A DNA stretch of 64,000 nt from Patescibacteria group bacterium (GTDB lineage Bacteria > Patescibacteriota > Patescibacteriia > Patescibacteriales > JBAZCA01): NCBI GenBank assembly GCA_041661505.1, contig JBAZUF010000003.1, positions 10,772-74,771 on the forward strand, written 5' to 3'. A program made the position numbers and the translations under genes. Below are positions 10,475 through 64,000 of this stretch, one piece after another. The notes beneath the pieces are model-generated. The model was not told the origin of the DNA. It saw nothing but the letters and a program-made list of their open reading frames with translations, and made no database searches. Position 1 is the first letter of the stretch. Every line of letters starts with the position of its first letter.

Positions 10475-10663
10475 ATGACAGAAGCTAAAGATAAAAAAAT
10501 TCTCAAAGATTTGGAGAAGGAAGCGAAAAAGGCTTTAGGGGCGGTAAAAAGCATAAAAGCTCGGCTGGCGGCGGCGGATTTAAAGTTTGGCAGGGCAATG
10601 CTAAAAAGAGATATAAGGAATATAAAAACCGCCAGGCAGATAATAAAATCTCGGGTGAAATGA
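10475..10663 (+). CDS. Small hypothetical basic helical protein
   Basis: A 62-aa ORF, co-directional, starting 20 nt after the preceding gene. No recognisable motif. Confidence 0.4.
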   Translation: MTEAKDKKILKDLEKEAKKALGAVKSIKARLAAADLKFGRAMLKRDIRNIKTARQIIKSRVK

Positions 10664-10793
10664 GCGAAAGAACCAGTCTCTTTTCGATTGACAATCCTGC
10701 CTGATTTGCTATATTTAAAGTAGGGTATTTACCTGCTTTTTTATTGATAATTTATACTTTTCCATATAATTTTTAAGGCATAAAATCGGACTT

Positions 10794-12125: not shown

Positions 12126-12192
12126 GCGGGTGCAGTAAAAAGTTAAGTTTTTAGATGGAGGACAAAAAGAGAGCTTAAACAGAAAAATAATT

Positions 12193-17608: not shown

Positions 17609-17626
17609 GACTCCTATAGGAGTTGA

Positions 17627-17660
17627 TAAAAAAACCGCCTCAATAAAAGGGGCGGTTTTT
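17627..17660. terminator. Bidirectional Rho-independent terminator between convergent genes
   Basis: The sequence aaaaaaaccgcc-tcaataaaag-gggcggttttt has an A-run, a G+C stem and a T-run, so it can serve both strands. Confidence 0.7.
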
Positions 17661-17693
17661 GGTAGCGGCTACACTTTATTATTCCTTTCCTTC

Positions 17694-18428
17694 TCAAATT
17701 TTTTTAATATCGAAATCTTCAGCCCATTCTTGCCTTGTAAAAAACCTAAAATCTTTCTTTAGCCCTTCAAAAGTATCTCCGGGCTTAATCGGCTTTCCTG
17801 CTAGAGCCGCCCTTATTCTTTTATCATAGTCTAAGACTTTTTCTATAACGCCAGCTCTGACCCCGCCGCCCAATGCTTCAAAGGCCGCTTTGACCTGTTC
17901 CGCGGTTGAATTAGCAGGAGTTTCTATTTTTGCTGTCGGGGCTGGAGTTTTAGCTTCTTGTTTAGGGATGCCAATATCTTCACGGATAGCATTAGCTTTA
18001 TTATTATCAGCTATTTTTTGGCCAGACAGCAATTCTTCAAAAGCGATTTTTTGGAAAAGATTATCGTAAATTTTTTGATCTAAGGGGTTGCCAAACTTGC
18101 ATACAAAATTTTCGCCCGGGGTTGACTTTTCAAATTTTATATATGCTTCGCGAACTTTTTTCAATACGGACGATTCTTCATGAGTCAGGCCGTCGTAGAC
18201 TAGATCTCCTTTAATCAAATTTTGTAGAATTTCTGCTGCTTTTTCTTGGGCTTGCGGAAACTGATTTTTTTGTTCAGGCGACAATTCTCTGTATAGTTTG
18301 TTTAACTGTTGGCTGTCTTCGTTGGCTCTTTTATCCATAAGCGATTCCGCCGGCTCAACGGGTCTGTCTGGAGATGGATTCACTTGTTCGGCTTTATTCT
18401 TGGTTAATTCTTGGTCGGGTGTTGTCAT
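17694..18428 (-). CDS. Hypothetical protein
   Basis: The ORF extends to 18485, but the first ATG giving a plausible N-terminus (MTTPDQELTKNK) is at 18428. No recognisable motif. Confidence 0.5.
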   Translation of the reverse strand: MTTPDQELTKNKAEQVNPSPDRPVEPAESLMDKRANEDSQQLNKLYRELSPEQKNQFPQAQEKAAEILQNLIKGDLVYDGLTHEESSVLKKVREAYIKFEKSTPGENFVCKFGNPLDQKIYDNLFQKIAFEELLSGQKIADNNKANAIREDIGIPKQEAKTPAPTAKIETPANSTAEQVKAAFEALGGGVRAGVIEKVLDYDKRIRAALAGKPIKPGDTFEGLKKDFRFFTRQEWAEDFDIKKI

Positions 18429-49553: not shown

Positions 49554-49631
49554 ATTTGGGTGGAAATATGATACAATTAGGGGAGAAAAAAGGCTTAATC
49601 GGCCTTGATTTATCATTATCTTCAAAGCAAT

Positions 49632-50615
49632 ATGGCTTACGATTTAATATCAATTGGAGGGGCTACCGAGGACATAACTTTTTACACCTCCGAAGGCGTG
49701 TTAATGGACAATAAAAAGGATGTCTTAAGGCAGAAGCTAATCTGCTTTGAATACGGAGCTAAAATTAAGGTGGATCGCTCGCATACGACCTTTGGCGGCG
49801 GGGCGGCTAACGTCGCGGTGGCCGGCGCTAGGCTGGGGCTAAAGACGGCTCTTATCGCTTGCGTTGGCAATGACAGCCGGGGAGAAGAGATAAAAAAGAA
49901 TTTGGCCGGCCAAAACGTGGATACCAGCCTAATGGAAACAACCGAAAAAAAGGAAACCGGCTTTTCCTTTCTCTTAACCGGGCCGGGAAACGAGCACGTG
50001 GTTTTTTCCAATCGGGCCTCAAACGACGAGCTTTCGATTAATAAAGACCATCTAACCGCGCTGGAAGAAGCTAAGTGGATTTATATTACCTCGCTGTCCG
50101 GGGAGTGGAAGCCGGTACTGGATAGCGTATTTATGGCCGGCCGGCCGAAGATCGCCTGGAATCCCGGCCACCGGCAGCTTTTAGAGGGTTGCGCGGCAAT
50201 AGCGGAATATTTGAAAAAAGTTGAAGTTTTGATTTTAAACAAAGACGAGGCTATTGAACTGGTTAAATCGAATAAAGGTTATGCCAAAAAAGATAATGAG
50301 TTTTTAAACGATATCAGGAACCTCTTGAAAGTTATGATTTCACTGGGGCCGAAGATAGTCGTAATAACGAACGGCCGGCATGGGGCTTATGCCCAGGACG
50401 AAAAAAAATCATATTTTCAAAAAATTTTTAAAGAGGCAATCAGGCTGAATACTACCGGAGTGGGGGACGCTTTTGGGTCGTCTTTTATCGCCGGATTGCA
50501 AATCTATAAAGGAAATATAAAAAAGGCAATGCTTTTAGGCGTAAAGAATACGGCTTCGGTGGTCGCTCATTACGGCGCCCAAACCGGATTATTAACTAGA
50601 AAAGAAATTATATGA
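49632..50615 (+). CDS. PfkB-family carbohydrate/nucleoside kinase
   Basis: MAYDLISIGGATEDI, GGGAANVAV, and the C-terminal TGVGDAFGSSF anion-hole motif. The ATG at 49632 is preferred. Confidence 0.8.
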   Translation: MAYDLISIGGATEDITFYTSEGVLMDNKKDVLRQKLICFEYGAKIKVDRSHTTFGGGAANVAVAGARLGLKTALIACVGNDSRGEEIKKNLAGQNVDTSLMETTEKKETGFSFLLTGPGNEHVVFSNRASNDELSINKDHLTALEEAKWIYITSLSGEWKPVLDSVFMAGRPKIAWNPGHRQLLEGCAAIAEYLKKVEVLILNKDEAIELVKSNKGYAKKDNEFLNDIRNLLKVMISLGPKIVVITNGRHGAYAQDEKKSYFQKIFKEAIRLNTTGVGDAFGSSFIAGLQIYKGNIKKAMLLGVKNTASVVAHYGAQTGLLTRKEII

Positions 50616-51181
50616 GAATTCCAATAGAAGTATCTGCCAGACACCTGCACTTATCGCCCAAGGACCTGGAAAAACTTTTTGGCCGAGGCTACAAGTTAAA
50701 GAAATTGCATGCCTTGTCCCAAAAGGGCGAATTCGCGGCCAGGGAAGAGGTAAAGATAGCCGGAAAAAAAACTAATTTGGGAGTAAGAATCGTCGGCCCG
50801 GCGAGAAGCAAGACGCAATTGGAAATTTCCGCTTCCGACGCCCACCGGCTGGGAATCTATCCGGCGGTTAGGCTGTCCGGCGATATAGAAAACACCCCGG
50901 GCTTTGAACTTATCGGCCCTAAAGGCAAAGCAGAAGTTAATAGAGGCATGATTATCGCCAAAAGACACCTCCATTTAAACCCGGCTGACGCCAAGAAATT
51001 GAGGCTCGGCCACCGGCATGTAATAAAAGTTAAGACCGAAGGCGAGCGGGAGGTGATTTTTGATAAAGTGGTCGTCAGGGTCGGCAAAAATTTTAAGCTC
51101 TCTTTGCATATTGATACCGACGAGGCTAACGCCGCCGGTCTTTGGAAGAAAAAAAATTACGGAAGATGGCTGCGGAGCTGA
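50612..51181 (+). CDS. pduL: Phosphate acyltransferase PduL
   Basis: Duplicated PduL signature SARHLHLS...GPAR..TQLEIS..DA and AKRHLHLNPADA. ATGA overlap with the pfkB stop. Confidence 0.8.
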   Translation: MRIPIEVSARHLHLSPKDLEKLFGRGYKLKKLHALSQKGEFAAREEVKIAGKKTNLGVRIVGPARSKTQLEISASDAHRLGIYPAVRLSGDIENTPGFELIGPKGKAEVNRGMIIAKRHLHLNPADAKKLRLGHRHVIKVKTEGEREVIFDKVVVRVGKNFKLSLHIDTDEANAAGLWKKKNYGRWLRS

Positions 51182-51233
51182 TGAAATAAAAAGATGGCGT
51201 TTTATTTAGATTTACGATGAGTTAACAATTTTT

Positions 51234-52358
51234 ATGCCGAATATTCTAGTCATCAACTCCGGCTCGACTTCAATAAAGTTCAAGGTCTTTGGCGATAAGG
51301 GAGAAAGCTTTAAAGAAGGGAGCATCGATAATGTTACCGATTACGATAAGGCGATAAAAAATATTTTAAGGCAGATCGGCGACTTTCGGGATATCGCCGG
51401 CATCGGCCACCGGGTAGTTCACGGAGGGGAGAAATTTTTCGAGCCAACGGTGATTAATGATAAGGTTATATCTGAATTGGAGAAAATTAGCGAGCTGGCC
51501 CCGCTTCATAATCCTTATAACCTGGCCGGGGTAAAGGCGGCTATTAATTTTTTACCGGATATTCCCGAGGCGGCGGTTTTTGATACCGGTTTTTACCGCG
51601 ATTTGCCGGAAACGGCAAGTTTTTACGCCCTGCCTAAACAGCTGTCGCTGCGCTATAAAATCAGGCGCTATGGTTTTCATGGCATATCCCATGAGCTGGC
51701 CGGAATGGAAGGCGCGAAAAAGCTGGGTTTGGATTTTAAAAAAGCCAATCTTATAACCTGCCATTTGGGCGGCGGCTGGTCGGTAACGGCGATTAAAAAC
51801 GGCAAAGCCGTTGATACTTCCATGGGCTTTACGCCAATGGAAGGGCTTATGATGATGACCCGTTCGGGCGATATTGATCCGGGAATTATTTTTCTATTGA
51901 TGAAGCATCGCGAGCTTTTGGATGAAACCGACGATAAGGGAAGAATTATTATGGATTTTTCCCATTCCCAAGAAAACGCCGTTAACGTGCATGAAGAGGA
52001 TTTAATGGCCCGCCGGGTAGAAAATATTTTAAACCAAGAGTCGGGGATTAAGGGCCTCACTGAAGGGATTTCCGACTATAAAGAACTTCTAAAAGCAGTC
52101 TCCCTTGGAAAAGAATCGGCAAAAACAGCCTTTGACATGGCGATTCGCCGTCTGGTAAAATACATTGGCTCTTATTACGCCATCCTAGAAGGCAATTTGG
52201 ATGGGATAATATTTACCGGCCGGATCGGCGCCGGCAACCCTATGACAAGAAACTCGGTTATGCGCAAGCTAAAATTCCTAAAATGCCCGGGCATACCGAT
52301 AGAGCCGAATGAAGAAAAGCTTATTGCCGATAAAGTCCGCGAATTATTAAAAATTTAA
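51234..52358 (+). CDS. ackA: Acetate kinase
   Basis: ILVINSGSTSIKF, GHRVVHGG, HNP, RRYGFHGISH and TCHLGGG motifs. Confidence 0.9.
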   Translation: MPNILVINSGSTSIKFKVFGDKGESFKEGSIDNVTDYDKAIKNILRQIGDFRDIAGIGHRVVHGGEKFFEPTVINDKVISELEKISELAPLHNPYNLAGVKAAINFLPDIPEAAVFDTGFYRDLPETASFYALPKQLSLRYKIRRYGFHGISHELAGMEGAKKLGLDFKKANLITCHLGGGWSVTAIKNGKAVDTSMGFTPMEGLMMMTRSGDIDPGIIFLLMKHRELLDETDDKGRIIMDFSHSQENAVNVHEEDLMARRVENILNQESGIKGLTEGISDYKELLKAVSLGKESAKTAFDMAIRRLVKYIGSYYAILEGNLDGIIFTGRIGAGNPMTRNSVMRKLKFLKCPGIPIEPNEEKLIADKVRELLKI

Positions 52359-52915: not shown

Positions 52916-54517
52916 ATGGGACTTCGCATTTTAAGGGAAGTTTATAAGAGGAAGACCATAGTCAAGTTTATTTTTTCCGGCGGGACAGCGGCCTTTACTG
53001 ACTTGGCGCTCTTATATGCTTTAACGAGCGTATTCGGAATCTGGTACCTTATATCGGCCATGATAGCTTTTGTCGTGGCTTTTTTTGTAAGTTTTTTTCT
53101 GCAGAAATTTTGGACCTTCCGGGATGGCGACAAAAAGAAAATGTACCGCCAGATGACTAAATATTTTATTGTTGGCGTCTTCAATCTGGGCATCAATACG
53201 ATAGGCATGTATTTGACCGTGGATATTTTCCGCGTCTTTTATCTATTTGCCCAGGTGATAGTTAGCGCTTTTGTCGCCATAGAAAGCTTTTTAATCTATA
53301 AGCATTTTATTTTTCGAAAAGAAGGCGAATCATCCGCGGAAGAAAAAAAAGGACAGCGGATATTAATTGCCACCGGGCTTTATCCGCCGGACTTCCGCGG
53401 ACCGGCGACGCTACTGGAGTCTTTGCCCGAAGCCTTGCGCGGCAAGGGATACGAGGTGAAAGTGCTTACCTATTCTGACGCGAAGGAGGTTGAGGGGGAA
53501 GCCGGATTAGTTTACCGGATTAACCGGAATCGAAACGGGTTTTTTAGGAGGGCCGCGTATTTGATTAAATTATGGCGGTTGTCCGACTGGGCTGATTTGG
53601 TCTACGCGACCGATGTTTACGGCGTTGGCTATCTGGTTAATTTTGTCTGCCATATCCAGAGGAAAAAGTATCTTATCCGCTTTACCGGCGACAGCGCCTG
53701 GGAAACCGCTTTGTTAAAAGGCGAAACCCAGGATTATATCAGTGATTTTCAAACTAAAAAATACGGGAGCCGAACCGAAAAATTAAAGGAAAGGAGAAAG
53801 AAAATAATGCTTGGCGCCGCGAAAATTATCGTTGACTGCCGGTTTATGGCCGATATCGCAAAAATTATCGGAGTCGGCGCCGATCAGATTAAAGTGATTT
53901 ACAATTCTTTAAACACCGATAAATTTAAGGAAAGCCAGGCAAGGATAGAGGAAATCAAAAAACAATTCGGTTCAAATTCCCGGTTAATTATCGCCATCGG
54001 CCAGCTAAATCCGTGGAAAGGGTTTGACGGCATAATTAGGGTGATGCCCCGGGTCTTGGAAAGGTTCGGGCCGGACGCTAAGCTTTTGATCCTGGGTGAA
54101 GGGCCGGAAAAGGAGAAATTAAATGAGCTCGCCAAAGAAAAAGGCGTTTCGAAAAATGTTTTTTTCTTGGGAAAGATCGCGCATTCGGACATTATTAATT
54201 ATCTTAAAGCCGGTGATTTATTTATCCTAAATTCCAATTACGAAGGCTGTTCGCATTTAATCCTTGAGGCCATGCACGCCGGATCGCCGATAATCGCTTC
54301 CCGGTCAGGCGGCAATCCTGAACTAATAGGCGGGGAAAAAGAGGGACTCTTAGTAAATTACAATAATGAAGAAGAAATTTTCAGAGCCTTATGCGAAATT
54401 CTTGGTAATAAGGAAAAAGCGGGCCTTTTAGCCCTGAATGCCAAAAATAAATCCGCGGAGTATCAATGGGAAAGGGTAGTAGGCGATACTATATGCGCAT
54501 TCAAGGAGGCCTTATGA
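52916..54517 (+). CDS. Fusion of a GtrA-like membrane domain with a family 4 (GT-B) glycosyltransferase
   Basis: The N-terminus has 4 TM helices with a GtrA pattern (KFIFSGGTAAFTDLALLYAL...QKFWTFRD). The C-terminal GT-B domain shows ILNSNYEGCSHLILEAMHAGSPIIASRSGGNPELI. The ATG at 52916 is preferred, because the upstream part overlaps the preceding gene. Confidence 0.75.
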   Translation: MGLRILREVYKRKTIVKFIFSGGTAAFTDLALLYALTSVFGIWYLISAMIAFVVAFFVSFFLQKFWTFRDGDKKKMYRQMTKYFIVGVFNLGINTIGMYLTVDIFRVFYLFAQVIVSAFVAIESFLIYKHFIFRKEGESSAEEKKGQRILIATGLYPPDFRGPATLLESLPEALRGKGYEVKVLTYSDAKEVEGEAGLVYRINRNRNGFFRRAAYLIKLWRLSDWADLVYATDVYGVGYLVNFVCHIQRKKYLIRFTGDSAWETALLKGETQDYISDFQTKKYGSRTEKLKERRKKIMLGAAKIIVDCRFMADIAKIIGVGADQIKVIYNSLNTDKFKESQARIEEIKKQFGSNSRLIIAIGQLNPWKGFDGIIRVMPRVLERFGPDAKLLILGEGPEKEKLNELAKEKGVSKNVFFLGKIAHSDIINYLKAGDLFILNSNYEGCSHLILEAMHAGSPIIASRSGGNPELIGGEKEGLLVNYNNEEEIFRALCEILGNKEKAGLLALNAKNKSAEYQWERVVGDTICAFKEAL

Positions 54518-55962
54518 ATAAAATAATTTTGATCAATCCGCCCTTTAATATCGCTAAAGACAATTATGACAGCTCGGTTTCGGTCGGGCTTTTATCCATC
54601 GCCACGTACCTTGATAGCCGGGAGTATGGCGTTAAAATAATTGACGGAGTAAGGCAGAAAAATTATTTTGCCGAAATCGAAAAATTAGCGCCGGACTGCG
54701 AATATTTCGGATTATCGGTTATGACCATGCAGATTCCGGAAGCTTTGAAGATTTCCCAAAGGATAAAAGAATTAAATCCCAAAGCTAAAATCATCTGGGG
54801 CGGAGCCCACCCGACTTTTTTTACGAAAGAGACGGCAAGCCATCCTTTGGTTGACTTGGCGGTTTTTGGTGAAGGGGAAAAAACAGTCGAAGAAGTGCTC
54901 TCTGGCCGGGTATTAAAAGAAATTAGCGGATTGGCTTTTAAGGAAAACGGCGCAATAACCGTAAATACGGCGCGAGAATTAACCGATCCTCGCGAAATGC
55001 CTTTATTTAACTGGGATTTAGTTGCCGGCGAAGTGCTCGAAAATTTGTATCTCATTCCATCCTTAACTTCAAGGGGCTGTCCGCACCAATGCACGTTTTG
55101 CATAAACGCGATTTTAAAAAATCGCTTTAGGCCCCGGTCTTCAGAACAAGTAATCCGCGACTTAGAAATTATCCAGGCGAAGAGCTATTTTAAAAATAAG
55201 AAAATAAGGTTTTGGGACGAGAATTTTTTCGTGGATATAAATCGGGCCAAATCGATCGTGGACGGGATGATTTCCCGGAGGCTTATTATACCCTGGGAAA
55301 CGACGGTCCGGGCTAACTATCTTCGCGCCGGAATGATTGACGGCGAATTTATGGCCCGCATAAAGAAATCCGGCTGTTATCTTTTGTCTTTTGGCGCCGA
55401 GTCGGGGAGCCCGGCAATTTTAAAAAAAATAAAGAAAGGAATTACGCCGGAAGAAATTATTAATTCGGCCAAGATGTGCTTAAGGCATGATATTATTCCC
55501 CAGTATTCGTTTATGATCGGACTTCCCGGAGAAACTAAGAAAGACATGAAGATGACTCTTCGGCTGATAGACGAACTGTTATCTTTGAGCGATAAAGTGC
55601 AAATTCTCGGACCCCAGGCTTTCCGGCCATATCCCGGGTCTGAACTTTATTCCGAATGCGTTAAGTCCGGCTGGCGTTCGCCTGGCAGTCTGGAAGAGTG
55701 GGCCGAACTCGCGCGAAATGAATTAAGCTACCTGGCCGTTAAAAACTTTCCCTGGGTAAAGGACAAAAGCTATGTCGAATCAATGGAAGCTTATGTTCGT
55801 TTCGGCGCTCATAGCTTAAAAAGCTCCCTTGGTTCTTCGGTTAAGGCGGGTAAATGGCTAAAGCTCGGATTCGTTTTATTATGCAAACTGCGCTGGAAGC
55901 TGAAATTTTTTTATTTTCCCGTTGAATTCAAGCTGGCTAAATATTTTGTTGTTGGAAAATAA
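54514..55962 (+). CDS. B12-binding-domain radical SAM protein (class B) #1
   Basis: SD aggagg lies 5 nt upstream of the ATG at 54514. The N-terminal Rossmann-like region (KIILINPPF...) has the layout typical of B12-binding rSAM enzymes. CxxxCxxC cluster SRGCPHQCTFC. Confidence 0.85.
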   Translation: MNKIILINPPFNIAKDNYDSSVSVGLLSIATYLDSREYGVKIIDGVRQKNYFAEIEKLAPDCEYFGLSVMTMQIPEALKISQRIKELNPKAKIIWGGAHPTFFTKETASHPLVDLAVFGEGEKTVEEVLSGRVLKEISGLAFKENGAITVNTARELTDPREMPLFNWDLVAGEVLENLYLIPSLTSRGCPHQCTFCINAILKNRFRPRSSEQVIRDLEIIQAKSYFKNKKIRFWDENFFVDINRAKSIVDGMISRRLIIPWETTVRANYLRAGMIDGEFMARIKKSGCYLLSFGAESGSPAILKKIKKGITPEEIINSAKMCLRHDIIPQYSFMIGLPGETKKDMKMTLRLIDELLSLSDKVQILGPQAFRPYPGSELYSECVKSGWRSPGSLEEWAELARNELSYLAVKNFPWVKDKSYVESMEAYVRFGAHSLKSSLGSSVKAGKWLKLGFVLLCKLRWKLKFFYFPVEFKLAKYFVVGK

Positions 55963-56040
55963 TTTGAGCCTTAGACTGGACAGTAATGCAATCTCAATTA
56001 AGGAGCCTTAGCCTGTTATAGAGTAATCTTTATTAACCTT

Positions 56041-57141
56041 ATGAAGATATTATCATTAAGCCTGGACAGTAATTATGCCAAACCTGATTCGCCGGTTTCT
56101 TTGCGGACCAAAGAATACGGGGCGCTGGCGGATCTTTACTGGGTTATTGCCCCGGGAGAAAGGGGCGCCAACCTGGAGCTAGGTGAAAAAGTTAAGGTAA
56201 TTTTTTCGGGCGGGCATACGAAGCCAGTAAGGCTCGCGCGGATTTACCATATTGCCAGCCGGGTCATTAAGGAAAATAAATTCGATGTAATAACCGTGCA
56301 AGACGCATATTTTCTAGCCATGCTCGGCTGGGTTATTGCTAAAAGATTTGATCTGGGCCTGGAATTGCAAATCCACGGGTTTGAAAAATTTTTTGGACTA
56401 AGAAAAATTATTGCTAAGTTCGTTCTTCCTAAAGCCGATTCAATTAGAACTGTAAGCCAAAGGATGAAAAATTTTCTAATCAATAATTTTAATATCAAGG
56501 AAAAGGCAGTAACGGCTGTTCCGGTTTATTATGACGTAAAAAGGCCGGCCGTTCCCGAATTCAGGCATTCCGCGTCCGGCCAGCCGGATGGCGAAAAAGA
56601 AATTTTTGTATTTTTAACTGTTGCCAGGCTGGCGGCAGTTAAAAGGATTGATTCGCAGGTTATGGCACTGGCGCAAATTGTAAAAAAATTTCCCCAAGCC
56701 AGGTTATGGATTGCCGGTTCAGGTCCGGAGGAGAAAAGGCTTAAAGAACTGGCCCGGAAAACACAGCTTGAAAACTACGTCCAATTCTTCGGCTGGCAGG
56801 AGAATCCGGATGAATTTTATTCCCGGGCCGGCGCCTACCTCCTTACTTCGGATTCGGAAGGCTGGGGAATGTCGGTAATTGAGGCGGCGGCTTACGGACT
56901 GCCGATAATCATGACCGACGCCGGCTGCGCCGGAGAAATAATAATTAATGGAGAAAGCGGAATAGTAGTACCGGCCGGAAATACGCGTGAATTAATTAGA
57001 AGCATGGAATTGCTGATTAGTGATCCGGAGCTAAGGAAAAAACTCGGCCAAGGGGCAAAAGCGGCTTTAAAAAAATTAAAAACCAAGGAAGAAACTTTGA
57101 AGCTCTACAAAAAGAGCTGGGAGCGGGCAATAATAAAATAA
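56041..57141 (+). CDS. Glycosyltransferase family 4 (GT-B)
   Basis: LLTSDSEGWGMSVIEAAAYGLPIIMTDAGCAGEII is the E-x7-E type motif. Confidence 0.8.
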   Translation: MKILSLSLDSNYAKPDSPVSLRTKEYGALADLYWVIAPGERGANLELGEKVKVIFSGGHTKPVRLARIYHIASRVIKENKFDVITVQDAYFLAMLGWVIAKRFDLGLELQIHGFEKFFGLRKIIAKFVLPKADSIRTVSQRMKNFLINNFNIKEKAVTAVPVYYDVKRPAVPEFRHSASGQPDGEKEIFVFLTVARLAAVKRIDSQVMALAQIVKKFPQARLWIAGSGPEEKRLKELARKTQLENYVQFFGWQENPDEFYSRAGAYLLTSDSEGWGMSVIEAAAYGLPIIMTDAGCAGEIIINGESGIVVPAGNTRELIRSMELLISDPELRKKLGQGAKAALKKLKTKEETLKLYKKSWERAIIK

Positions 57142-57213
57142 AAAGCATTTATATCTTACGATATAACTTTCATTCGCTCGTCCCGCATCCCGCGGGGCTC
57201 GCTTATATCAATT

Positions 57214-57912
57214 ATGAAAACTTTATCAATAGTCATTCCAGTTTATAATGAAGAAAATACGATTTTAAAAATTATCGGAGCTATTGAGTCAGTGGACCTG
57301 CGGGAGATTAACAAGCAATTAATTATCGTTGATGACAAATCAATTGACGGCACCAGGAAAATTCTGGAAGGAATAAAAGGAAAATACAAGGTAATTTTTA
57401 AGGAAGAGAATGGCGGAAAGGGAAGCGCCATCCGGACGGGTTTTAGGGAAGCCCAAGGCGACATAGTTCTAGTCCAGGATGCTGACCTGGAATATGATCC
57501 GGAAGAATATCCGAAGCTGATTTCTCCTATTTTAGACGGTAAAGCCGACGTAGTGTACGGTTCGAGGTTTATGGGAGGCGAGCCGCACCGGGTGCTTTAT
57601 TTTTGGCATTCGGCCGCCAATAAACTGCTTACTCTTTTATGCAACATCTTCAGCGGCTTGAATTTAACTGACATGGAAACCGGCTATAAAGTTTTTACCC
57701 GGGAGGCGCTAGGAAAGTTAGCGCCCAGGCTTACCGCCAATCGTTTCGGCATTGAACCGGAAATGACCATCAAAATCGCCCGGTTAAAGCTTCGGGTTTA
57801 TGAAGTGGGAATTTCTTACTCCGGCCGGACTTATGCCGAAGGAAAAAAAATAAATTGGAAAGACGGCTTTGCCGCCGTCTGGCATATAATCAAATACGGG
57901 ATCATTTCTTAA
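57214..57912 (+). CDS. Glycosyltransferase family 2 (polyprenol-phosphate glycosyltransferase-like)
   Basis: LSIVIPVYNEE, IIVDDKSIDGT and QDADLEYDP (DxD) motifs. Confidence 0.85.
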   Translation: MKTLSIVIPVYNEENTILKIIGAIESVDLREINKQLIIVDDKSIDGTRKILEGIKGKYKVIFKEENGGKGSAIRTGFREAQGDIVLVQDADLEYDPEEYPKLISPILDGKADVVYGSRFMGGEPHRVLYFWHSAANKLLTLLCNIFSGLNLTDMETGYKVFTREALGKLAPRLTANRFGIEPEMTIKIARLKLRVYEVGISYSGRTYAEGKKINWKDGFAAVWHIIKYGIIS

Positions 57913-57915
57913 TAT

Positions 57916-58995
57916 ATGAAGCTTTTAGTAATAACCCAAAAGGTGGATATTAATGACGATCTTTTAGGCTTCTTTCATAAGTGGCTGGAAGAGCTGGCGG
58001 CGCGCTGGGAGAAGCTAACCGTAATCACCCTTGGCCAGGGAGAGACGAAACTGCCGGCTAATGTCCGGGTCTTAAGCCTGGGAAAGGAAAAAGGGGCGCC
58101 CAGAATGTTTAGAAAATCCATTTACACATGGAATTTTTTTAAGCTGATTATAAGGGAACGGAAAAATTATGACGCGGTTTTTGTCCACATGAACCAGGAA
58201 TACGTAATCCTCGGCGGCCTTCTTTGGAAATTGTGGAATAAAAAAATCGGCTTTTGGTACGTCCATAAAAAAGTGAGCTTTAAACTGCGGCTGGCCGAAA
58301 AGCTGGCGGATTATATTTTTACCGCTTCCGAAGAAGGCTTTAGGCTGGGGTCAAAAAAAGTTTTGATCACTGGCCATGGTATTAATACGGAACAGTTTAG
58401 TCCGGCAAAAGCGGAAAGAAAACCAGAGGGCGCCTTTAAAATAATTTACGTCGGACGCATCAGCCCGATAAAAAATCAAAAGTTATTGGTCGAGGCTTTG
58501 GATATATTGGTGAATAAAAAAGGCATCACTGATTCGCGGATTAAATTTATCGGCGCGCCGGTTTATCCTGAAGATGAAGCTTACTTAGGACAATTGAAAG
58601 AAGCGGTTAGGAGGGATAAGCTGGAAGGGTGCGTGGACTTCATCGGCAGCGTCCCATACCGGGAAATCTCTAAATATTATGCCGAGGCCGATTTGGCCGT
58701 AAATTTATGCCCAACCGGCGGGATGGACAAGGCGGTTTTGGAAGCTATGGCCGCCGGGCTGCCGGTCATTGCCTATAATAAAGCTTTTGTTTCTTTGTTT
58801 GGACAATATGCCGGTCTAATGGTATTGGAAAATGACGACAAGATAGAGCTGGCAAAAAAAATAACGGCCCTGAAAATTCTGCCTTTAGGCGAGAAGATAG
58901 TTTTGTCGGAGCGCTTAATATCTATAGTAAAGGAGAGATACAGTTTGGGAAATTTGATTGAAAAGATAACCAAAAAATTCCAAAGCCGCGAATAA
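57916..58995 (+). CDS. Glycosyltransferase (GT-B, family 1/4-like)
   Basis: C-terminal GGMDKAVLEAMAAGLPVIAYN motif, and ~360 aa GT-B length. Confidence 0.7.
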   Translation: MKLLVITQKVDINDDLLGFFHKWLEELAARWEKLTVITLGQGETKLPANVRVLSLGKEKGAPRMFRKSIYTWNFFKLIIRERKNYDAVFVHMNQEYVILGGLLWKLWNKKIGFWYVHKKVSFKLRLAEKLADYIFTASEEGFRLGSKKVLITGHGINTEQFSPAKAERKPEGAFKIIYVGRISPIKNQKLLVEALDILVNKKGITDSRIKFIGAPVYPEDEAYLGQLKEAVRRDKLEGCVDFIGSVPYREISKYYAEADLAVNLCPTGGMDKAVLEAMAAGLPVIAYNKAFVSLFGQYAGLMVLENDDKIELAKKITALKILPLGEKIVLSERLISIVKERYSLGNLIEKITKKFQSRE

Positions 58996-59002
58996 TGATT
59001 GT

Positions 59003-60490
59003 ATGGCAAAAAAAGTTGCGTTAATCTCTTTGTACGCCGGGAGCGCCCGGGGCATACCGCCCCTGGGGTCTTTGTATTTGGCGACAGCTTTAAAAAAAAA
59101 GGGAATAGGCGCAAAAATTTTCCATGCTGACGCCGGACAGCTCGAAGAACTAATTTCAAAAATCAGGAGCTATTGTCCGGATTTGGCTGGTATGTCGGTT
59201 TTTACCGGCCATTTAAATAAAAAGTATGTCCAATTGTCGAAAGAACTAAAAAAGGAAGGATACCAAACCGTTTGGGGAAACGCCCACCCTTCGCTCTTGC
59301 CGAATGAAGTGTTAAAAGAAAACTACGTCGATTTTATTATAATCGGAGAAGGGGAAGAAGCCTTGGCCGAGCTGGCGGAAAGCCTTGACGCCAGGGACCA
59401 ATTCGCCCGGATAAAAAATCTTGGCTACAAAGATGATTCAGGCGGAATCCATATCAATCCCCGGCGGGAATTTTCCGATATTGATGAATATTTAATTGAT
59501 TGGTCCCTAATAAATCTGGAAGAGTACATAATTCCGTATTTTTCCGGCCGCTTCCAAAGGACTTTGGCGGTTGTAAGTTCCCGGGGCTGTCCGTATAATT
59601 GCCAGTTCTGCTACAACCTGGTTTTTAATAACCGGCGGTGGCGGGCCCATTCTCCGGAAAAAATTGCCGCTAACCTGGAGCCGATAATAAAGAAGTACGG
59701 GATTGAAGCTATCCGGTTTCTTGATGATAATTTTTTTGTTGACAAAGAAAGGGCTTTTAAGATCGTAGAGGCGCTCGGTCTTCCATTTTCCGCCGACTGC
59801 CGGGTGGAATACATAACTGAAGATTTTGTCAGCCGGCTGAAATCGGCCAAATGCCTTGAGCTTACTTTCGGTTTTGAATCCGGGTCAGACAGAATTTTAA
59901 AGGAAGTAATAAAAAAGGGAACTGGCACGGCGGAAATTATCCGGGCGGTAACGCTTTTGTCCGGCTCGGGGATAATTGCCTCGGCTGGAATAATTTTCGG
60001 AGCGCCGACCGAGACTAAAAGCGAATATCTGGAAACTTTGAATTTTATCATCCGGCTTCTGAAAATCAATCCTAATCTGGCTTTTACCTGCGGATGGTTT
60101 CTGCCTTATCCCGGAACCGGACTTTACGAAAAATCCAAGGAACTCGGGTTCCGGCCGCCCCAGAGCATTGAGGAGTGGGATAAGTTTGACCGCTGGAGGG
60201 ATGATTACGAGATGGAGTGGGTTGGCTGGGACGCTAAAAGAGCGGTAAAATACTCAAGGCGGTTTGTTCATCTTCTGGCCCTGGCTTATAAAAGGAACAT
60301 CCCGATTTTAAAATCGCTGTTAAAATGGAGGGCTGGCCGCGCTAATTTCAGTTTTCCGCTGGATATATATATATTTTCCCGCTTGAGGCAAATTTACCTT
60401 TTTGAAAGCGGTGAAAAAGCCCATAACCGGATTATCAAAAAAATTCTCAATTTCATTATTAAATCCGCCCGCGCGGCGAAAAAAATATGA
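59003..60490 (+). CDS. B12-binding-domain radical SAM protein (class B) #2, paralog of 54514..55962
   Basis: SRGCPYNCQFC cluster. The same domain order and several colinear blocks with #1, for example IRFLDDNFFVDKERAFKIVEAL against IRFWDENFFVDINRAKSIVDGM. Confidence 0.85.
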   Translation: MAKKVALISLYAGSARGIPPLGSLYLATALKKKGIGAKIFHADAGQLEELISKIRSYCPDLAGMSVFTGHLNKKYVQLSKELKKEGYQTVWGNAHPSLLPNEVLKENYVDFIIIGEGEEALAELAESLDARDQFARIKNLGYKDDSGGIHINPRREFSDIDEYLIDWSLINLEEYIIPYFSGRFQRTLAVVSSRGCPYNCQFCYNLVFNNRRWRAHSPEKIAANLEPIIKKYGIEAIRFLDDNFFVDKERAFKIVEALGLPFSADCRVEYITEDFVSRLKSAKCLELTFGFESGSDRILKEVIKKGTGTAEIIRAVTLLSGSGIIASAGIIFGAPTETKSEYLETLNFIIRLLKINPNLAFTCGWFLPYPGTGLYEKSKELGFRPPQSIEEWDKFDRWRDDYEMEWVGWDAKRAVKYSRRFVHLLALAYKRNIPILKSLLKWRAGRANFSFPLDIYIFSRLRQIYLFESGEKAHNRIIKKILNFIIKSARAAKKI

Positions 60491-61071
60491 CCCGGGAAAA
60501 ATTTTTATTTAAGCATTTAGGCGCGGGAAAAATTCTTGATATCGGCAATTTAGGCGGAGGAGCCAGAATCCATAAGGAGATTATCAGCCGTTTTCCCGGA
60601 GCGGAGGTTTATGGCCTTGATTCGCAAAGCGCCGGCGGGCTCGGTTTTAGTTTTCCCAATCAAGCGGCCGGGCGGGCGGAAGACCTTCCTTATCCGGATA
60701 ACCACTTTGATTTTATATATTTAGGTGAAGTTTTGGAGCATAGCTGGGAGCCGAAGAAAATTACCGACGAGTGCTTTCGGGCTTTAAAGTTTGGGGGAGT
60801 ATTGGTTCTTGATACCCCTAATATTTATGCTCTTTCCCGGATGCTCCGTTATTTTTTCACCGGCCGGGACATAATCCTTGGGGATCCGGACCACAAAATA
60901 TTTTTTTCCCGAGCTATGCTTTCAAATCTTCTCGATAAATCCGGATTTGATGTCTTAGATCTTTTGAGTGATGGACTCTGCACAATTAAATGCCGGAATT
61001 TTCGATTGCCTGGAATTGGGCCGTTTAACTATATGGGCGAGCACCTTCTTTGCGCCTGCCGAAAGAAATAA
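60487..61071 (+). CDS. Class I SAM-dependent methyltransferase
   Basis: ILDIGNLGGG (motif I-like), FDFIYLGEVLEH and LKFGGVLVLDTPN. ATGA overlap with the upstream gene. Confidence 0.75.
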   Translation: MTREKFLFKHLGAGKILDIGNLGGGARIHKEIISRFPGAEVYGLDSQSAGGLGFSFPNQAAGRAEDLPYPDNHFDFIYLGEVLEHSWEPKKITDECFRALKFGGVLVLDTPNIYALSRMLRYFFTGRDIILGDPDHKIFFSRAMLSNLLDKSGFDVLDLLSDGLCTIKCRNFRLPGIGPFNYMGEHLLCACRKK

Positions 61072-61105
61072 TTTTAAGAGTCGGCACAATAAATATAGTA
61101 GTAAT

Positions 61106-61762
61106 ATGGAAAGCCAAAATAATGATCATTGCGTGCGTGATGCCGGCAAAAAAACATCATACGCCAACAACTTTAATAAGTATTGCGACCCTAATCGCTG
61201 GGCCAGCTACTGGCACCAAATAAACAGCGTTTTAGGTTGTAGGGCGGAAAAAGTACTGGAAATCGGGATCGGCGACCGGGTGCTGGCCAACTACTTAAAA
61301 AGTAATACTAGCATTGATTATCATTCGGTTGACGTTTCACCGGATTTGTGTCCGGATATCGTTAACAGTATTGACGACCTTAAGGATATAGAGGATAATT
61401 TTTTTGATGTGGTTTGCGCTTTTGAAGTATTGGAACACCTGCCTTATGAGAAATTTAATAAAGCGCTGGGCGAACTTTACCGGGTGTCCAGCCGGCATGT
61501 CATTTTAAGCCTTCCTCACTGGGGCCGGCATTTTTCTTTTGATTTCCGCCTGCCTTTTATAAAAAGGATAAGATGGCAGATAAAGCTCCAAATATTCGGA
61601 AAAAAGCATAAATTCGACGGCCATCATTTTTGGGAGCTGGGGAAGAGGGGCTATAGCCTGAAGAGGGTAAAAAGTGAGCTAGTAAAGGCCGGTTTTAAAA
61701 TTGAAAAAGATTATATTGCCTTTGAGTCGCCCTATCACCACTTTTTTATTTTGAAAAAATAA
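61106..61762 (+). CDS. Class I SAM-dependent methyltransferase
   Basis: VLEIGIGDRVL and FDVVCAFEVLEHLP. The ATG at 61106 is preferred over the track start at 60968, which overlaps the previous gene. Confidence 0.7.
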   Translation: MESQNNDHCVRDAGKKTSYANNFNKYCDPNRWASYWHQINSVLGCRAEKVLEIGIGDRVLANYLKSNTSIDYHSVDVSPDLCPDIVNSIDDLKDIEDNFFDVVCAFEVLEHLPYEKFNKALGELYRVSSRHVILSLPHWGRHFSFDFRLPFIKRIRWQIKLQIFGKKHKFDGHHFWELGKRGYSLKRVKSELVKAGFKIEKDYIAFESPYHHFFILKK

Positions 61763-61765
61763 TTT

Positions 61766-62449
61766 ATGAGATTTTCTTTAGTAATACCCGCCTATAACGA
61801 ATCATCCAGCCTGAATTCGGCGATTAGTCCGCTTATGGATGAAATCGAGAAAGTTGAGACTGATTTTGAAATAATTTTAGTGGACAACGGTTCGACCGAT
61901 GATACCCGGGAACGGCTGGCCGGATTAGAGAAAATTTTCCCCCGGCTAAAAACTGTAAGGGTTTTTCCGAATCAGGGATATGGAAACGGAATCCTGGCCG
62001 GCCTGAAGTCGGCCCGGGGCGAGATTATCGGCTGGACTCACGCCGATAATCAGATAGCCCCGGCTGATATCGTCCGCGCTTACCAAAAAATGCTTAATGA
62101 AAATCTCCAATTATGCAAAGCAGTTCGAAAAGAAAGAGAATCCGGCTGGCGCCGGACACAAAGCCGGGCCTATAATTTTATCTTTCACCGGCTTTTTAAA
62201 TCCGGCCTTCGCGATATTAATTCGCCCCCAAAGATTTTTTCGCGTTCGCTTTATGAAAAAATAAATTTATGCTCTTTAGGCTGGTTTATTGATCCGGAAT
62301 TGGTAATCAAAGCCCTTCGCGAAGGGGCGAAAATCGGAGAAGTTGAAATTTCCTGGAAACCCCGAGAAGGAAGCCGGTCGAAGGTATCTTTGACCGCCTC
62401 TTTGGATTTTTTATTCAACATGATAAAGTACAGGCTCAACTTTGATTAG
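61766..62449 (+). CDS. Glycosyltransferase family 2
   Basis: FSLVIPAYNES, ILVDNGSTDDT and WTHADNQ motifs. Confidence 0.8.
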   Translation: MRFSLVIPAYNESSSLNSAISPLMDEIEKVETDFEIILVDNGSTDDTRERLAGLEKIFPRLKTVRVFPNQGYGNGILAGLKSARGEIIGWTHADNQIAPADIVRAYQKMLNENLQLCKAVRKERESGWRRTQSRAYNFIFHRLFKSGLRDINSPPKIFSRSLYEKINLCSLGWFIDPELVIKALREGAKIGEVEISWKPREGSRSKVSLTASLDFLFNMIKYRLNFD

Positions 62450-62456
62450 AAAAAAT

Positions 62457-63266
62457 ATGGAAACAGAAAAATCGCTTGATGTCTCGCAAATCCCGGTGGT
62501 AATTTTCTGCGGAGGGCGGGGCACCAGGCTAAAAGAAGAAACGGAAATAATTCCCAAACCGCTGGTTCGAGTCGGCGGCAAGCCGATTTTGTGGCATATA
62601 ATGAAAATCTACTATGCCCAGGGTTTCCGTAAGTTCGTCCTCTTAATTGGCTATAAAGGAGAGCTGATTAAAGAATACTTTTGCCGCTATCATCTGCATC
62701 AATGCGATTTTACCATCCGCCCTAAGGACAAGCGGCGTGAAATTATTTACCACAGCCTTCCGGCTGAAGACTGGGAAATTAGCTTCATAGATACTGGAGC
62801 CGACACCCAGACCGGTGCCAGGCTAAAAGGCGCGGAAAAGCTTTTGAAAGGCCGGCTTTTTATGCTTACTTACGGCGACGGGGTGGCGGACGTTGATCTT
62901 TCCCGGCTTTTGAAAGTCCATAACCAGGAAAAGAAAATGATTACTATCACCGGAGTTTTTCCGCCCAGCCGTTTCGGAGAAATAATTATGGAAGGCAATT
63001 CGGTGGTTGGGTTTTGGGAGAAGCCGCAGGTGCAAAGCGGGTATATTAACGGCGGATTCTTTGCCGTTAACCCGGAGATTTTTGATCACCTGGCTGGCGA
63101 CGATTCATTGAACTTTGAAAAAGACGTTTTGTCCCGGCTGGCCAAAGAAGGAAATATGGCTGCCTGCCCGCACAACGGCTATTGGCAGTGCATGGATACG
63201 GTCAGGGACATGGAGCTGTTAAATGAGGTATGGCAAAGCGGAGCGGCTCCCTGGAAGGTTTGGTAG
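62457..63266 (+). CDS. rfbF: Glucose-1-phosphate cytidylyltransferase
   Basis: VVIFCGGRGTRLKEETEIIPKPLVRVGGKPILWHIMKIYYAQGFRKFVLLIGYKGELIKEYF closely follows the RfbF N-terminal pattern. About 270 aa. Confidence 0.85.
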   Translation: METEKSLDVSQIPVVIFCGGRGTRLKEETEIIPKPLVRVGGKPILWHIMKIYYAQGFRKFVLLIGYKGELIKEYFCRYHLHQCDFTIRPKDKRREIIYHSLPAEDWEISFIDTGADTQTGARLKGAEKLLKGRLFMLTYGDGVADVDLSRLLKVHNQEKKMITITGVFPPSRFGEIIMEGNSVVGFWEKPQVQSGYINGGFFAVNPEIFDHLAGDDSLNFEKDVLSRLAKEGNMAACPHNGYWQCMDTVRDMELLNEVWQSGAAPWKVW

Positions 63267-63343
63267 ATAATTTCTTGCCCCGCTTTTTATATGGCTTTAT
63301 GTTTTATTTTTGTTCATAGGGCCGCCTGTCAAGCAAATTGGCT

Positions 63344-64000
63344 ATGAAAAAAACAGATACAATTCTTTTAACCGGCGGGACTGGATTTTTAGGAAGCCAA
63401 ATATTAAAATTGCTGGCTAAAAAGGGGCAAAGGGTGATTGTTTTAAAAAGGAAAAATTCAGACCTATCCCGTGTCAGGGGTGTGGTAAAGAAAAATAGGA
63501 TAATCTATGTCGATTTAAAACCCGGCTTTTCTAATGCCGGCGCAATTTTTAGGAAATATAAAATTGATTATGTAATTCATGCGGCGACCTGCTATGGCCG
63601 GAAGGGGGAACCGGAATCAAAGGTAATAGAAGCAAACTTAACCCTGCCTCTTCTCTTGTTGGGAACGGGGATAACGAGCGGCGTAAAGGGTTTTATTAAC
63701 GCCGATACCTTTACCAGAGACAAAAAATGGATTTATGCCCGAACCAAGGAGGAGCTGGTTAGCCGGGCAAAAAAAATGGTTAAAGGGAAAAAAATAAAGT
63801 TCATCAATTTAAAGATTGAACATATGTACGGGCCGGGCGACAGCGCCCATAAATTTATCCCTTGGGTAATCGGCGAGCTAAAAAGAAACGCCCCGGCAAT
63901 TTCTTTTACTAAAGGCCGGCAAAAAAGAGACTTAGTCTGCGTGGAAGATGCATCAAGGGCATTTTTCAAAGCCATAGAAAATTTTAGCGCATTAGCTAAT
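63344..64000 (+). CDS. NAD-dependent epimerase/dehydratase (extended SDR), 3' end outside the window
   Basis: This ORF is not in the ORF track because it has no stop within the window. My own translation from the ATG at 63344 stays open for 219 codons. It shows ILLTGGTGFLGSQIL (the GxxGxxG motif) and YARTK (the YxxxK motif). Confidence 0.75.
   Translation, partial: MKKTDTILLTGGTGFLGSQILKLLAKKGQRVIVLKRKNSDLSRVRGVVKKNRIIYVDLKPGFSNAGAIFRKYKIDYVIHAATCYGRKGEPESKVIEANLTLPLLLLGTGITSGVKGFINADTFTRDKKWIYARTKEELVSRAKKMVKGKKIKFINLKIEHMYGPGDSAHKFIPWVIGELKRNAPAISFTKGRQKRDLVCVEDASRAFFKAIENFSALAN

Follow-up and report, generated by a model that had tools for sequence, protein, structure and literature searches.

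The last 11 kb of a 64-kb stretch of Patescibacteria DNA (contig JBAZUF010000003.1; the whole stretch of 64,000 nucleotides is called the window below) carry eleven genes that we interpret as the 5' half of a cell-envelope glycoconjugate locus in this member of the candidate phyla radiation (CPR), an interpretation towards which we lean, if only slightly. Its product would be a membrane-linked sugar modified by radical chemistry. [quoted passage not shown] Two further radical SAM enzymes that appear to be of the same cobalamin (B12)-binding type belong to the locus, rSAM#2 within the window and rSAM#3 beyond its end.

The comparison was based on 84 loci, namely the source locus, three loci retrieved by looking up the exact protein, and 80 that came from scanning a single genome for each species; 81 of them are distinct, as L002, L003, and L004 re-read contigs that are also present as L010, L073, and L070 (L-numbers label the individual loci compared, and L001 and L088 carry the source locus). 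Open reading frames (ORFs) were called in all 84 loci and classified against the source proteins, and neighborhoods were counted within ±10 kb. The 80 scanned loci each hold a homologue that is 51 to 71% identical to rSAM#1, and all informative genome names among them belong to Patescibacteria (Falkow-, Buchanan-, Kuenen-, Uhr-, Magasanik-, Komeili-, Portnoy-, Terry-, and Gribaldobacteria as well as Paceibacterota), in agreement with the CPR host that had been proposed from the sequence alone. The best 120 of the thousands of rSAM#1 homologues align over their full length at 61 to 80% identity, and those with names come from Kuenen-, Falkow-, and Buchananbacteria, among others. Several binchicken third-party-annotation (TPA) metagenome-assembled genomes (L005, L012, L013, L015, and others) carry the locus at 65 to 71% identity under the titles “uncultured Gammaproteobacteria” or “Saccharibacteria,” which look like placeholders or incorrect assignments.

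A GT4 homologue lies immediately upstream of rSAM#1 in 76 of the 84 loci and within 150 bp of it in 67, and of 74 measurable junctions, 17 show an overlap of 4 nucleotides (nt) and 14 one of 8 nt between the two genes. On the 3' side, rSAM#1 is followed by a GT4 gene in 52 loci and by another radical SAM gene in 17. Beyond this pair the content varies. An rSAM#2-like gene is present in 24 and an rSAM#3-like gene in 27 of the 84 loci, with true rSAM#2 orthologues (55 to 63% identity) in few of them; a GT-B glycosyltransferase is found in 46 loci, and DPMS-like GT2, methyltransferase, and further GT4 genes recur as well. Among the 35 loci of at least 20 kb, 22 hold at least two and 11 at least three class-B-like radical SAM genes, so that glycan loci with several such enzymes are the norm in this clade. 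The median identity to the source protein is 67% for rSAM#1 (78 orthologues), whose conservation is the highest at this locus, 43% for its partner GT4, 31% for the next GT4 (GT4b), 58% for the DPMS-like GT2 (28 loci), and 60% for a DUF6580 membrane protein encoded just upstream.

The gene content of the source locus is listed in Table 1. All eleven genes, with the domains and the order given in the sequence-only reading, were confirmed by the ORF table and by Pfam and NCBIfam searches, and the two ATGA overlaps at positions 54514 and 60487 are present in the sequence. The remaining gaps, given there as 3 to 8 nt, are indeed that short (3 to 7 nt) at four junctions (57912/57916, 58995/59003, 61762/61766, and 62449/62457), but the other four measure 78, 72, 34, and 77 nt, with those of 72 to 78 nt following rSAM#1, GT4b, and rfbF. 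Likewise, the genes are tightly packed and co-directional as described, yet nearly the entire window is densely coded on the + strand; since these are properties of the whole window, they provide no evidence for an operon by themselves. Promoter-like and terminator-like sites between positions 50500 and 64000 occur at the frequency expected from shuffled sequence (22 versus 22.1 and 22 versus 20.3, respectively), leaving operon boundaries unreadable. The ORFs of the locus are real genes, and the three proteins searched (rSAM#1, DUF6580, and rSAM#3) have thousands of homologues each. Some starts differ between public gene calls (L088 versus L089): rfbF is given either 269 amino acids (aa), starting with ATG at 62457, or 274 aa, starting with TTG at 62442 and so sharing 8 nt with the preceding GT2 gene, the DPMS-like GT2 at 57214 is called with 232 or 206 aa, and rSAM#1 with 489 or 498 aa, where the alignment of orthologues implies 482 aa.

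Table 1. Genes of the glycan locus and the gene preceding it, with positions in the window and supporting profile matches
Feature	Position	Strand	Evidence
DUF6580 membrane protein, 178 aa	52372-52908	+	PF20221, 168 bits
GtrA_DPMS_TM + GT4 fusion	52916-54517	+	PF04138, 80.6 bits; PF00534, 128.2 bits
rSAM#1, B12-type, CPHQCTFC	54514-55962	+	PF02310, 64.5 bits (cut-off 32.1); PF04055, 71.3 bits (cut-off 29.5)
GT4 (GT4b)	56041-57141	+	PF00534, 140 bits
Short GT2 (GT2a), polyprenyl-phosphate sugar synthase type	57214-57912	+	PF00535, 114.7 bits
GT-B fold, GT4-like glycosyltransferase	57916-58995	+	PF13692, 75.5 bits; PF00534, 69 bits
rSAM#2, B12-type, CPYNCQFC	59003-60490	+	PF02310, 60.0 bits; PF04055, 75.4 bits
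Class I SAM methyltransferase	60487-61071	+	PF08241, 46.4 bits; ATGA overlap with rSAM#2
Class I SAM methyltransferase	61106-61762	+	PF08241, 33.7 bits; start 61106 agrees with public gene call
Short GT2, ArnC/DPMS-like	61766-62449	+	PF00535, 82.6 bits
rfbF, glucose-1-phosphate cytidylyltransferase	62457-63266	+	TIGR02623, 310.9 bits (equivalog cut-off 300.25)
Short-chain dehydrogenase/reductase (SDR) epimerase/reductase, 299 aa in full, cut by window end	63344-64000	+	PF01370, 104.5 bits

The radical SAM proteins have the domain architecture of class B enzymes. Both rSAM#1 and rSAM#2 match the B12-binding domain PF02310 and the Radical_SAM domain PF04055 above threshold, which upholds the earlier assignment, and the PF02310 match covers profile positions 12 to 121, nearly its full length. 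The three cysteines of the CxxxCxxC motif are invariant in an alignment of six sequences that includes rSAM#3 and also in 31 rSAM#1 orthologues. In addition, rSAM#1, rSAM#2, and rSAM#3 share the motifs S/T-x-M/F-T, GG/GN-x-H, and GEGE in the Rossmann domain, which are likewise invariant across the 31 orthologues; we take the S-x-L-like and GG elements to resemble the nucleotide-tail pocket of cobalamin-binding domains. Together, these features make cobalamin use likely. The description of rSAM#1 and rSAM#2 as a duplicated pair did not hold, however: the locus contains three old paralogues, and these two are only 34% identical over 399 residues, being ancient members of different orthologous groups with no recent duplication between them.

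Among solved structures, the glutamine C-methyltransferase MgmA/QCMT (PDB accession no. 9ccb) comes closest to rSAM#1 in sequence (87.8 bits) as well as in fold. The AlphaFold2 (AF2) model of rSAM#1 (pLDDT of 84) shows a beta-alpha N-terminal domain and matches MgmA in Foldseek with an E value of 3e-21 (TM scores of 0.62/0.71), followed by OxsB, TsrM, and CysS at about 1e-17 and TokK at 2e-15; the leading folds are those of cobalamin-bound enzymes. Like these enzymes, the proteins of the locus feature an N-terminal Rossmann-type B12 domain followed by a partial TIM barrel with CxxxCxxC; they differ from the solved class B enzymes in their low identity (14 to 20%), in that cobalamin binding is predicted here, and in their context, an envelope glycan locus, where the solved enzymes act on a protein glutamine, a nucleoside, tryptophan, a carbapenem, or an acyl-carrier-bound intermediate. 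Searching rSAM#1 against 1.84 billion cluster representatives returned 3,411 unannotated matches at an E value of at most 1e-30, the best of them 46% identical, which shows only that the paralogue family is huge. Among named NCBIfam families, rSAM#1 and rSAM#3 score best with HpnJ (TIGR03471, cut-off 577.6; 158.1, 113.0, and 222.2 bits for rSAM#1, rSAM#2, and rSAM#3, respectively), the alignment with rSAM#1 spanning profile positions 46 to 425 of 472, and rSAM#2 scores best with BchE (TIGR02026, cut-off 481.35; 98.0, 143.8, and 193.8 bits), while several methylase families score similarly. All BchE scores lie below the cut-off, and the name “anaerobic Mg-protoporphyrin cyclase” that the Joint Genome Institute (JGI) gives to some homologues is an over-annotation.

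Three giant proteins among the cluster representatives, P0421 (2096 aa), P0448 (2331 aa), and P0498 (2279 aa), contain four rSAM#1-like stretches each, as if several class-B-type radical SAM modules had been fused in tandem. In related loci, the N-terminal domain of two radical SAM genes (L004, positions 16949 to 18262; L091, positions 8532 to 9989) scores only 17 to 20 bits, under the PF02310 threshold; these may have lost, or never had, the canonical B12 domain and could serve as comparators for cobalamin use.

Public contigs with the identical sequence (50 kb and 247 kb) show the locus continuing well beyond position 64000. On the source contig it comprises at least 21 genes over more than 20 kb. 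Downstream of rfbF follow, in this order, the full 299-aa SDR gene, rSAM#3 (B12-type, 470 aa), the CDP-glucose 4,6-dehydratase gene rfbG, a 735-aa protein (about 13 transmembrane helices predicted, C-terminal domain soluble), a methyltransferase, an oxidoreductase of the flavin adenine dinucleotide (FAD)/amine-oxidase type, a GT4, a 467-aa polytopic PMT-like GT-C protein, a GT2, and an asparagine-synthase-like (AsnB-like) gene. The start of rSAM#3 overlaps the SDR gene and its end overlaps the gene that follows. Both CDP-sugar genes pass their equivalog models: the rfbF match spans positions 3 to 255 of the 255 of TIGR02623, and rfbG (L001, positions 11970 to 13037, outside the window) reaches 451.7 bits with TIGR02622 against a cut-off of 278.45. 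Of the rfbG/rfbH-type genes that the sequence-only reading proposed to look for beyond the window, rfbG is present, but neither an RfbH/E1 gene of the pyridoxamine phosphate (PMP)-dependent type (DegT/aminotransferase-type) nor an E3 gene of the ferredoxin-reductase type was found when the 20 genes called further downstream on the source contig were examined.

The sequence-only reading had placed the radical SAM pair next to a CDP-glucose pathway. While rfbF and rfbG are real, nothing ties the pair to them; the radical SAM enzyme that sits inside the CDP-hexose cassette is the third one, rSAM#3, and rfbF was found at only one of the 84 loci, the source itself. The CDP-hexose branch is thus a strain-specific accessory. 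The cassette resembles the CDP-3,6-dideoxyhexose O-antigen pathway of Salmonella and Yersinia (RfbF, RfbG, RfbH/E1, RfbI/E3, RfbS/J, and RfbE) in RfbF, RfbG, and the presence of an SDR capable, in principle, of reduction or epimerization, but differs from it in lacking RfbH/E1 and E3 and in carrying a class-B-type radical SAM gene between the SDR gene and rfbG.

The rSAM#3 family is taxonomically wider than the locus and extends, at 42 to 50% identity, to Nanoarchaeota, Desulfobaccales, Omnitrophota, and Saganbacteria. The homologue closest to rSAM#3, from Falkowbacteria (60% identity), has an SDR and a GT2 gene upstream and another radical SAM gene and a 724-aa membrane protein downstream, the latter 35% identical to the 735-aa protein of the source. 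In Desulfobaccales, two genes of the family lie amid GT2 and methyltransferase genes. No rfbF or rfbG was found near the homologues in the Falkowbacteria, Desulfobaccales, and Nanoarchaeota loci, and the idea that rfbF, SDR, rSAM#3, and rfbG form a conserved unit was discarded, as rSAM#3 homologues occur elsewhere without rfbF and rfbG. In the Saganbacteria locus L087, a homologue of 43% identity is flanked by genes for an NDP-hexose 2,3-dehydratase and a GFO/IDH/MocA ketoreductase, and the neighboring genes (positions 1066 to 11293) encode SDR enzymes, FdtA, a pair of DegT aminotransferases, a methyltransferase, and Wza/Wzz, a textbook nucleotide-deoxysugar cassette within a polysaccharide export locus. 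This NDP-deoxyaminosugar cassette looks complete and would be a good system for studying the action of the rSAM#3 family on nucleotide sugars.

The glycosyltransferases suggest where the sugar is built. The GT4 domain of the fusion protein has its best PDB match in the glycolipid mannosyltransferase PimB' (3oka; 76.7 bits), with BshA and MshA also matched. GT2a (232 aa, no transmembrane segment) matches the Pyrococcus DPMS (5mlz; 78 bits) over its whole catalytic domain, then ArnC and GtrB; its best NCBIfam match is AglJ (118 bits, under cut-off), and that of the second short GT2 (61766-62449) is ArnC (66.9 bits, under cut-off). The 467-aa polytopic protein downstream matches PMT (PF02366) marginally, at 25.3 bits against a cut-off of 22.7. 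Given DPMS-like GT2 enzymes, a GtrA/DPMS domain, a PMT-like protein, and a PimB'-like GT4, we infer polyprenyl-phosphate-linked intermediates and an extracytoplasmic transfer step. With its GtrA-family membrane domain, two DPMS/GtrB/ArnC-like GT2 catalytic domains, and a PMT-like polytopic protein, this set recalls the three-component Gtr systems (GtrA flippase, GtrB polyprenyl-phosphate glycosyltransferase, and GT-C transferase) and Ppm1/Pmt protein O-mannosylation; here, however, GtrA is fused to a GT4 instead of free-standing, the GT2 enzymes have no membrane anchors, and the PMT match is marginal.

We therefore propose the following scheme, each step of which is conditional. The retaining GT4, here fused to a GtrA/DPMS domain, would place a sugar on a membrane-bound acceptor that is probably linked to polyprenyl phosphate, and rSAM#1, probably translationally coupled to it, would then modify this sugar by radical chemistry, most likely by methylating an unactivated carbon. 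C-methylation is the commonest class B reaction, and because of this, and because the best structural match of rSAM#1 is a methylase, sugar C-methylation is our leading guess. Extension and decoration of the glycan would fall to rSAM#2, both class I methyltransferases, and the remaining GT4 and GT-B enzymes, a set that varies by lineage, while the two short DPMS/ArnC-like GT2 enzymes may make polyprenyl-phosphate sugars that the downstream polytopic GT-C enzymes would use outside the membrane. In the source strain, the cassette of rfbF, SDR, rSAM#3, and rfbG would supply a modified CDP-6-deoxyhexose, with rSAM#3 and the SDR acting on CDP-4-keto-6-deoxyglucose. A radical-modified deoxyhexose, C-methylated or rearranged, as had been suggested for the product, is a plausible candidate. 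It is tempting to extend this scheme to many Patescibacteria (ABY1 and Paceibacteria-type), in which an invariant, cobalamin-dependent GT4-rSAM#1 step would perform C-methylation or form a carbocycle, extra radical SAM enzymes would diversify nucleotide sugars, the CDP-6-deoxyhexose among them, and the minimal, vitamin-auxotrophic cells would obligately need scavenged B12 to build their surface, with DUF6580 as a solitary importer of the S-component type not recognized before; in this full form, however, we regard the proposal as doubtful.

Several observations weigh against a cobalamin-dependent modification of an envelope glycan. Both the chemistry and the cofactor are entirely inferred. The argument leans on synteny across genomes because adjacency within one compact, co-directional genome is weak evidence, and the N-terminal GtrA domain accompanies the partner GT4 in no more than about 14 of the loci compared. 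The roughly 30 kb read contain no recognizable initiating phosphoglycosyltransferase, Wzx, or Wzy, and none of the radical SAM proteins reaches the cut-off of any named NCBIfam family. Rfam and tRNA scans of the window returned zero matches, hence no cobalamin riboswitch, and no recognized family of B12 transport or salvage was matched by the 49 window ORFs scanned; on B12 in CPR bacteria, PMC8672522 offered nothing usable. The radical SAM core of AprD4 (6fd2), an enzyme that binds no cobalamin, is the best PDB sequence match of both rSAM#2 (58 bits) and rSAM#3 (94.4 bits), and in Foldseek AprD4 lies nearly as close to the rSAM#1 model as MgmA does (E value of 2e-16; TM scores of 0.62/0.66). 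Reading cobalamin binding from the AF2 model was accordingly abandoned, as AprD4 and true B12 enzymes score alike. As for novelty, it is not unusual for polysaccharide loci to include radical SAM genes.

The similarity to AprD4 raises the question whether at least one of the radical SAM enzymes works without cobalamin, dehydrating a 1,2-diol by radical chemistry together with a partner reductase. In the CDP-hexose cassette, rSAM#3 and the 299-aa SDR would then deoxygenate a CDP-hexose in place of RfbH/E1-E3, yielding a 3,6-dideoxy- or otherwise deoxygenated hexose, much as AprD4 and AprD3, a diol dehydratase and its reductase, deoxygenate C3 of a sugar. This would fit the position of rSAM#3, which adjoins and overlaps the SDR gene between rfbF and rfbG in a locus without an RfbH-like (DegT/PMP) gene; AprD4 is also among the top folds for rSAM#1, the window lacks a B12 riboswitch and any recognized B12 gene, and a B12-free enzyme would spare an organism with a reduced genome the need to obtain cobalamin. 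Moreover, AprD4 and ArsL carry related Rossmann-like domains yet bind no cobalamin (PMC12931638), and a B12-binding Pfam match is therefore no proof of cobalamin use. However, the sequence matches to AprD4 are confined to the radical SAM core (query residues 159 to 398) and leave out the N-terminal domain, and scores with the AprD4 family (NF033070, cut-off 500) are only 37.2, 69.7, and 104.6 bits for rSAM#1, rSAM#2, and rSAM#3, below those of HpnJ, BchE, and several methylases. With PF02310 matched nearly full length above its gathering score in rSAM#1 and rSAM#2, and with conserved S-x-M/L-like and GG motifs in the nucleotide-tail pocket, we consider this explanation unlikely.

A ring contraction in place of a methylation would be expected if rSAM#1 were an analogue of HpnJ or calditol synthase (Cds), converting a lipid-linked hexose into a carbocyclic cyclitol, which would provide a head group or anchor that resists hydrolysis. 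Among NCBIfam families, HpnJ ranks first for rSAM#1 and rSAM#3, the partner GT4 has a membrane domain and a glycolipid mannosyltransferase as its best PDB match, and both HpnJ and Cds are proposed to act on a membrane-lipid sugar, a lipid-linked hexose, that a glycosyltransferase has attached (PMC13459092). In locus L004, a PF01522 polysaccharide deacetylase directly 3' of rSAM#1 even echoes the HpnI/HpnK/HpnJ set. As a general feature, though, such a triad of glycosyltransferase, radical SAM enzyme, and deacetylase was ruled out, with a deacetylase in only 9 of the 84 loci and next to rSAM#1 in about 2; the HpnI analogue is a GT2 rather than a GT4, the locus has no hopanoid or glycerol dialkyl glycerol tetraether (GDGT) genes, all HpnJ scores fall far under the cut-off, and the best structural match is the methylase MgmA. 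On balance, this alternative appears decidedly unlikely. The same low probability attaches to the view that the 11 kb merely juxtapose several independent modules in a compact genome, such as the GT4-rSAM#1 core, a Gtr-like three-component set, and the CDP-hexose cassette. The compactness of the window on one strand, the tendency of glycan genes to cluster in variable islands, the unreadable operon structure with sites at chance level, and the 72- to 78-nt gaps after rSAM#1, GT4b, and rfbF all suit this view, as does the strongly differing module content of related loci, with rfbF unique to the source. Against it, GT4, GT-B, methyltransferases, extra class B radical SAM enzymes, and DPMS-like GT2 recur around the GT4-rSAM#1 pair in most of the 84 loci and across many candidate phyla-level groups, and several junctions overlap or are 3 to 7 nt apart.

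Finally, the product might be a secreted specialized metabolite, an aminoglycoside-like or moenomycin-like glycolipid, instead of an envelope glycan. Antibiotic-pathway radical SAM enzymes accompany GT4-type glycosyltransferases, deacetylases, and methyltransferases, and MoeK5 acts on a lipid-phosphate-linked sugar. By description, the sugar-acting class B methylases GenK, GenD1, MoeK5, and Fms7 (listed in PMC12931638) resemble the enzymes of this locus in standing beside GT4-type glycosyltransferases and SAM methyltransferases and in targeting sugar carbons. They all belong to antibiotic pathways in specialized-metabolite clusters of actinomycetes, whereas the locus studied here is clade-wide and apparently a core envelope locus of CPR bacteria. 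Its core is shared, at about 67% identity, by at least 80 species-level genomes whose metabolism is minimal, a pattern more in keeping with a housekeeping role in the envelope than with a specialized metabolite; genes for aminocyclitol, prenyl-phosphoglycerate, resistance, or export were not recognized, and related loci contain GT-C-type membrane enzymes and Wzx/Wzy. We therefore hold a secreted metabolite to be highly improbable and prefer the envelope glycoconjugate with a radical-modified, membrane-linked sugar.

The DUF6580 gene ends 7 nt before the GtrA-GT4 fusion and is found directly upstream of the GT4-rSAM#1 pair in 9 of the 84 loci. Both DUF6580 homologues that were chosen independently adjoin radical SAM or glycosyltransferase genes (L090, positions 6001 to 6531; L091, positions 6001 to 6549): the first is followed immediately by a B12-type radical SAM gene, with an rSAM#1-type gene 5 kb further on, and the second by two GT2 genes, a radical SAM gene, and Wzx. 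The linkage of DUF6580 to glycan loci with radical SAM genes is real, and the protein is associated with the locus, although its membership falls short of proven. Its AF2 model (pLDDT of 91) is a six-helix bundle whose top PDB folds are all S components of energy-coupling factor (ECF) transporters (FolT, RibU, PanT, and ThiT), with TM scores of 0.5 to 0.64 and weak E values of 0.03 to 0.8; the match to PF12822 is weak as well (22.7 bits, cut-off 30.7), a sequence search of the PDB with DUF6580 gave no match, and NCBI names the protein a “putative transport protein.” From the model, DUF6580 could possibly be an importer of a vitamin or cofactor, perhaps a solitary one for cobalamin or another compound, or a membrane component of the pathway, for example, one that handles lipid-linked intermediates.

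In the Magasanikbacteria locus L090, the region before DUF6580 and the B12-type radical SAM gene (positions 1970 to 5984) encodes a DUF4430 protein, an 819-aa protein with weak matches to DUF4430 and to an alpha/alpha-toroid (SQHop_cyclase_C), and a UbiA prenyltransferase. We assume DUF4430 to be a transcobalamin-like (C-terminal) domain, which would suggest B12 capture, an unconfirmed lead. As a general B12-capture partner, DUF4430 was dismissed, being present in only 3 loci, absent from the window, and without support from the PDB.

Elsewhere, the window looks like an ordinary Patescibacteria chromosome, encoding FtsK, GyrA, an S1 protein, FtsH, RsmI, MetRS, Sua5, and TatD as well as F-type ATPase subunits, GroEL, ABC transporters, a PfkB kinase, PTAC, and acetate kinase. 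The PfkB-family kinase, the PTAC-type phosphate acyltransferase, and the acetate kinase are encoded consecutively at positions 49605 to 52358, directly upstream of the glycan locus, a compact set for substrate-level phosphorylation that is typical of fermentative CPR bacteria. The 1050-aa protein encoded at positions 1894 to 5046 combines a PKD domain with four lamin-tail domains; it is large and presumably acts at the surface or in adhesion. Between positions 8001 and 10500, GC skew (0.335) and AT skew (0.333) are extreme compared with about 0.1 elsewhere; the ORF at 8424 to 10454 (676 aa) has no Pfam match and is probably low-complexity or repetitive purine-rich coding sequence.

rSAM#1 retains about 67% identity across at least 80 species where the neighboring glycosyltransferases retain 31 to 43%, which indicates that its step is under strong constraint and probably important. 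The case for importance comprises the conservation of rSAM#1, the presence of multiple radical SAM enzymes, and the question of cobalamin in vitamin-auxotrophic cells. Class B radical SAM enzymes with sugar substrates have been described in antibiotic pathways, and the general make-up seen here is familiar for glycan loci. In our literature search, which was incomplete and amounts to absence of evidence, we found no description of such a locus, in line with the view that the pathway is undescribed, no characterized class B radical SAM enzyme in an envelope-glycan pathway, and no paper on the conserved Patescibacteria pair. To our knowledge, sugar substrates of this chemistry are confined to antibiotic pathways, and if cobalamin is used, this would be its first known role in an envelope glycan and would widen the enzymology of C-branched or rearranged sugars.

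The consequences would reach beyond this locus. Members of the rSAM#3 family occur in nucleotide-sugar cassettes of unrelated phyla (Saganbacteria and Desulfobaccales), and one solved member would give an annotation to thousands of genes that currently carry the labels “radical SAM protein,” “YgiQ,” or “BchE.” For the organisms themselves, the epibiotic lifestyle of CPR bacteria depends on surface contact, and we know of almost nothing about their cell-surface chemistry. If the proposed cobalamin use is true, these organisms, which are unable to make B12, would have a specific micronutrient dependency that could be exploited for cultivation and that would bear on the exchange between host and symbiont.

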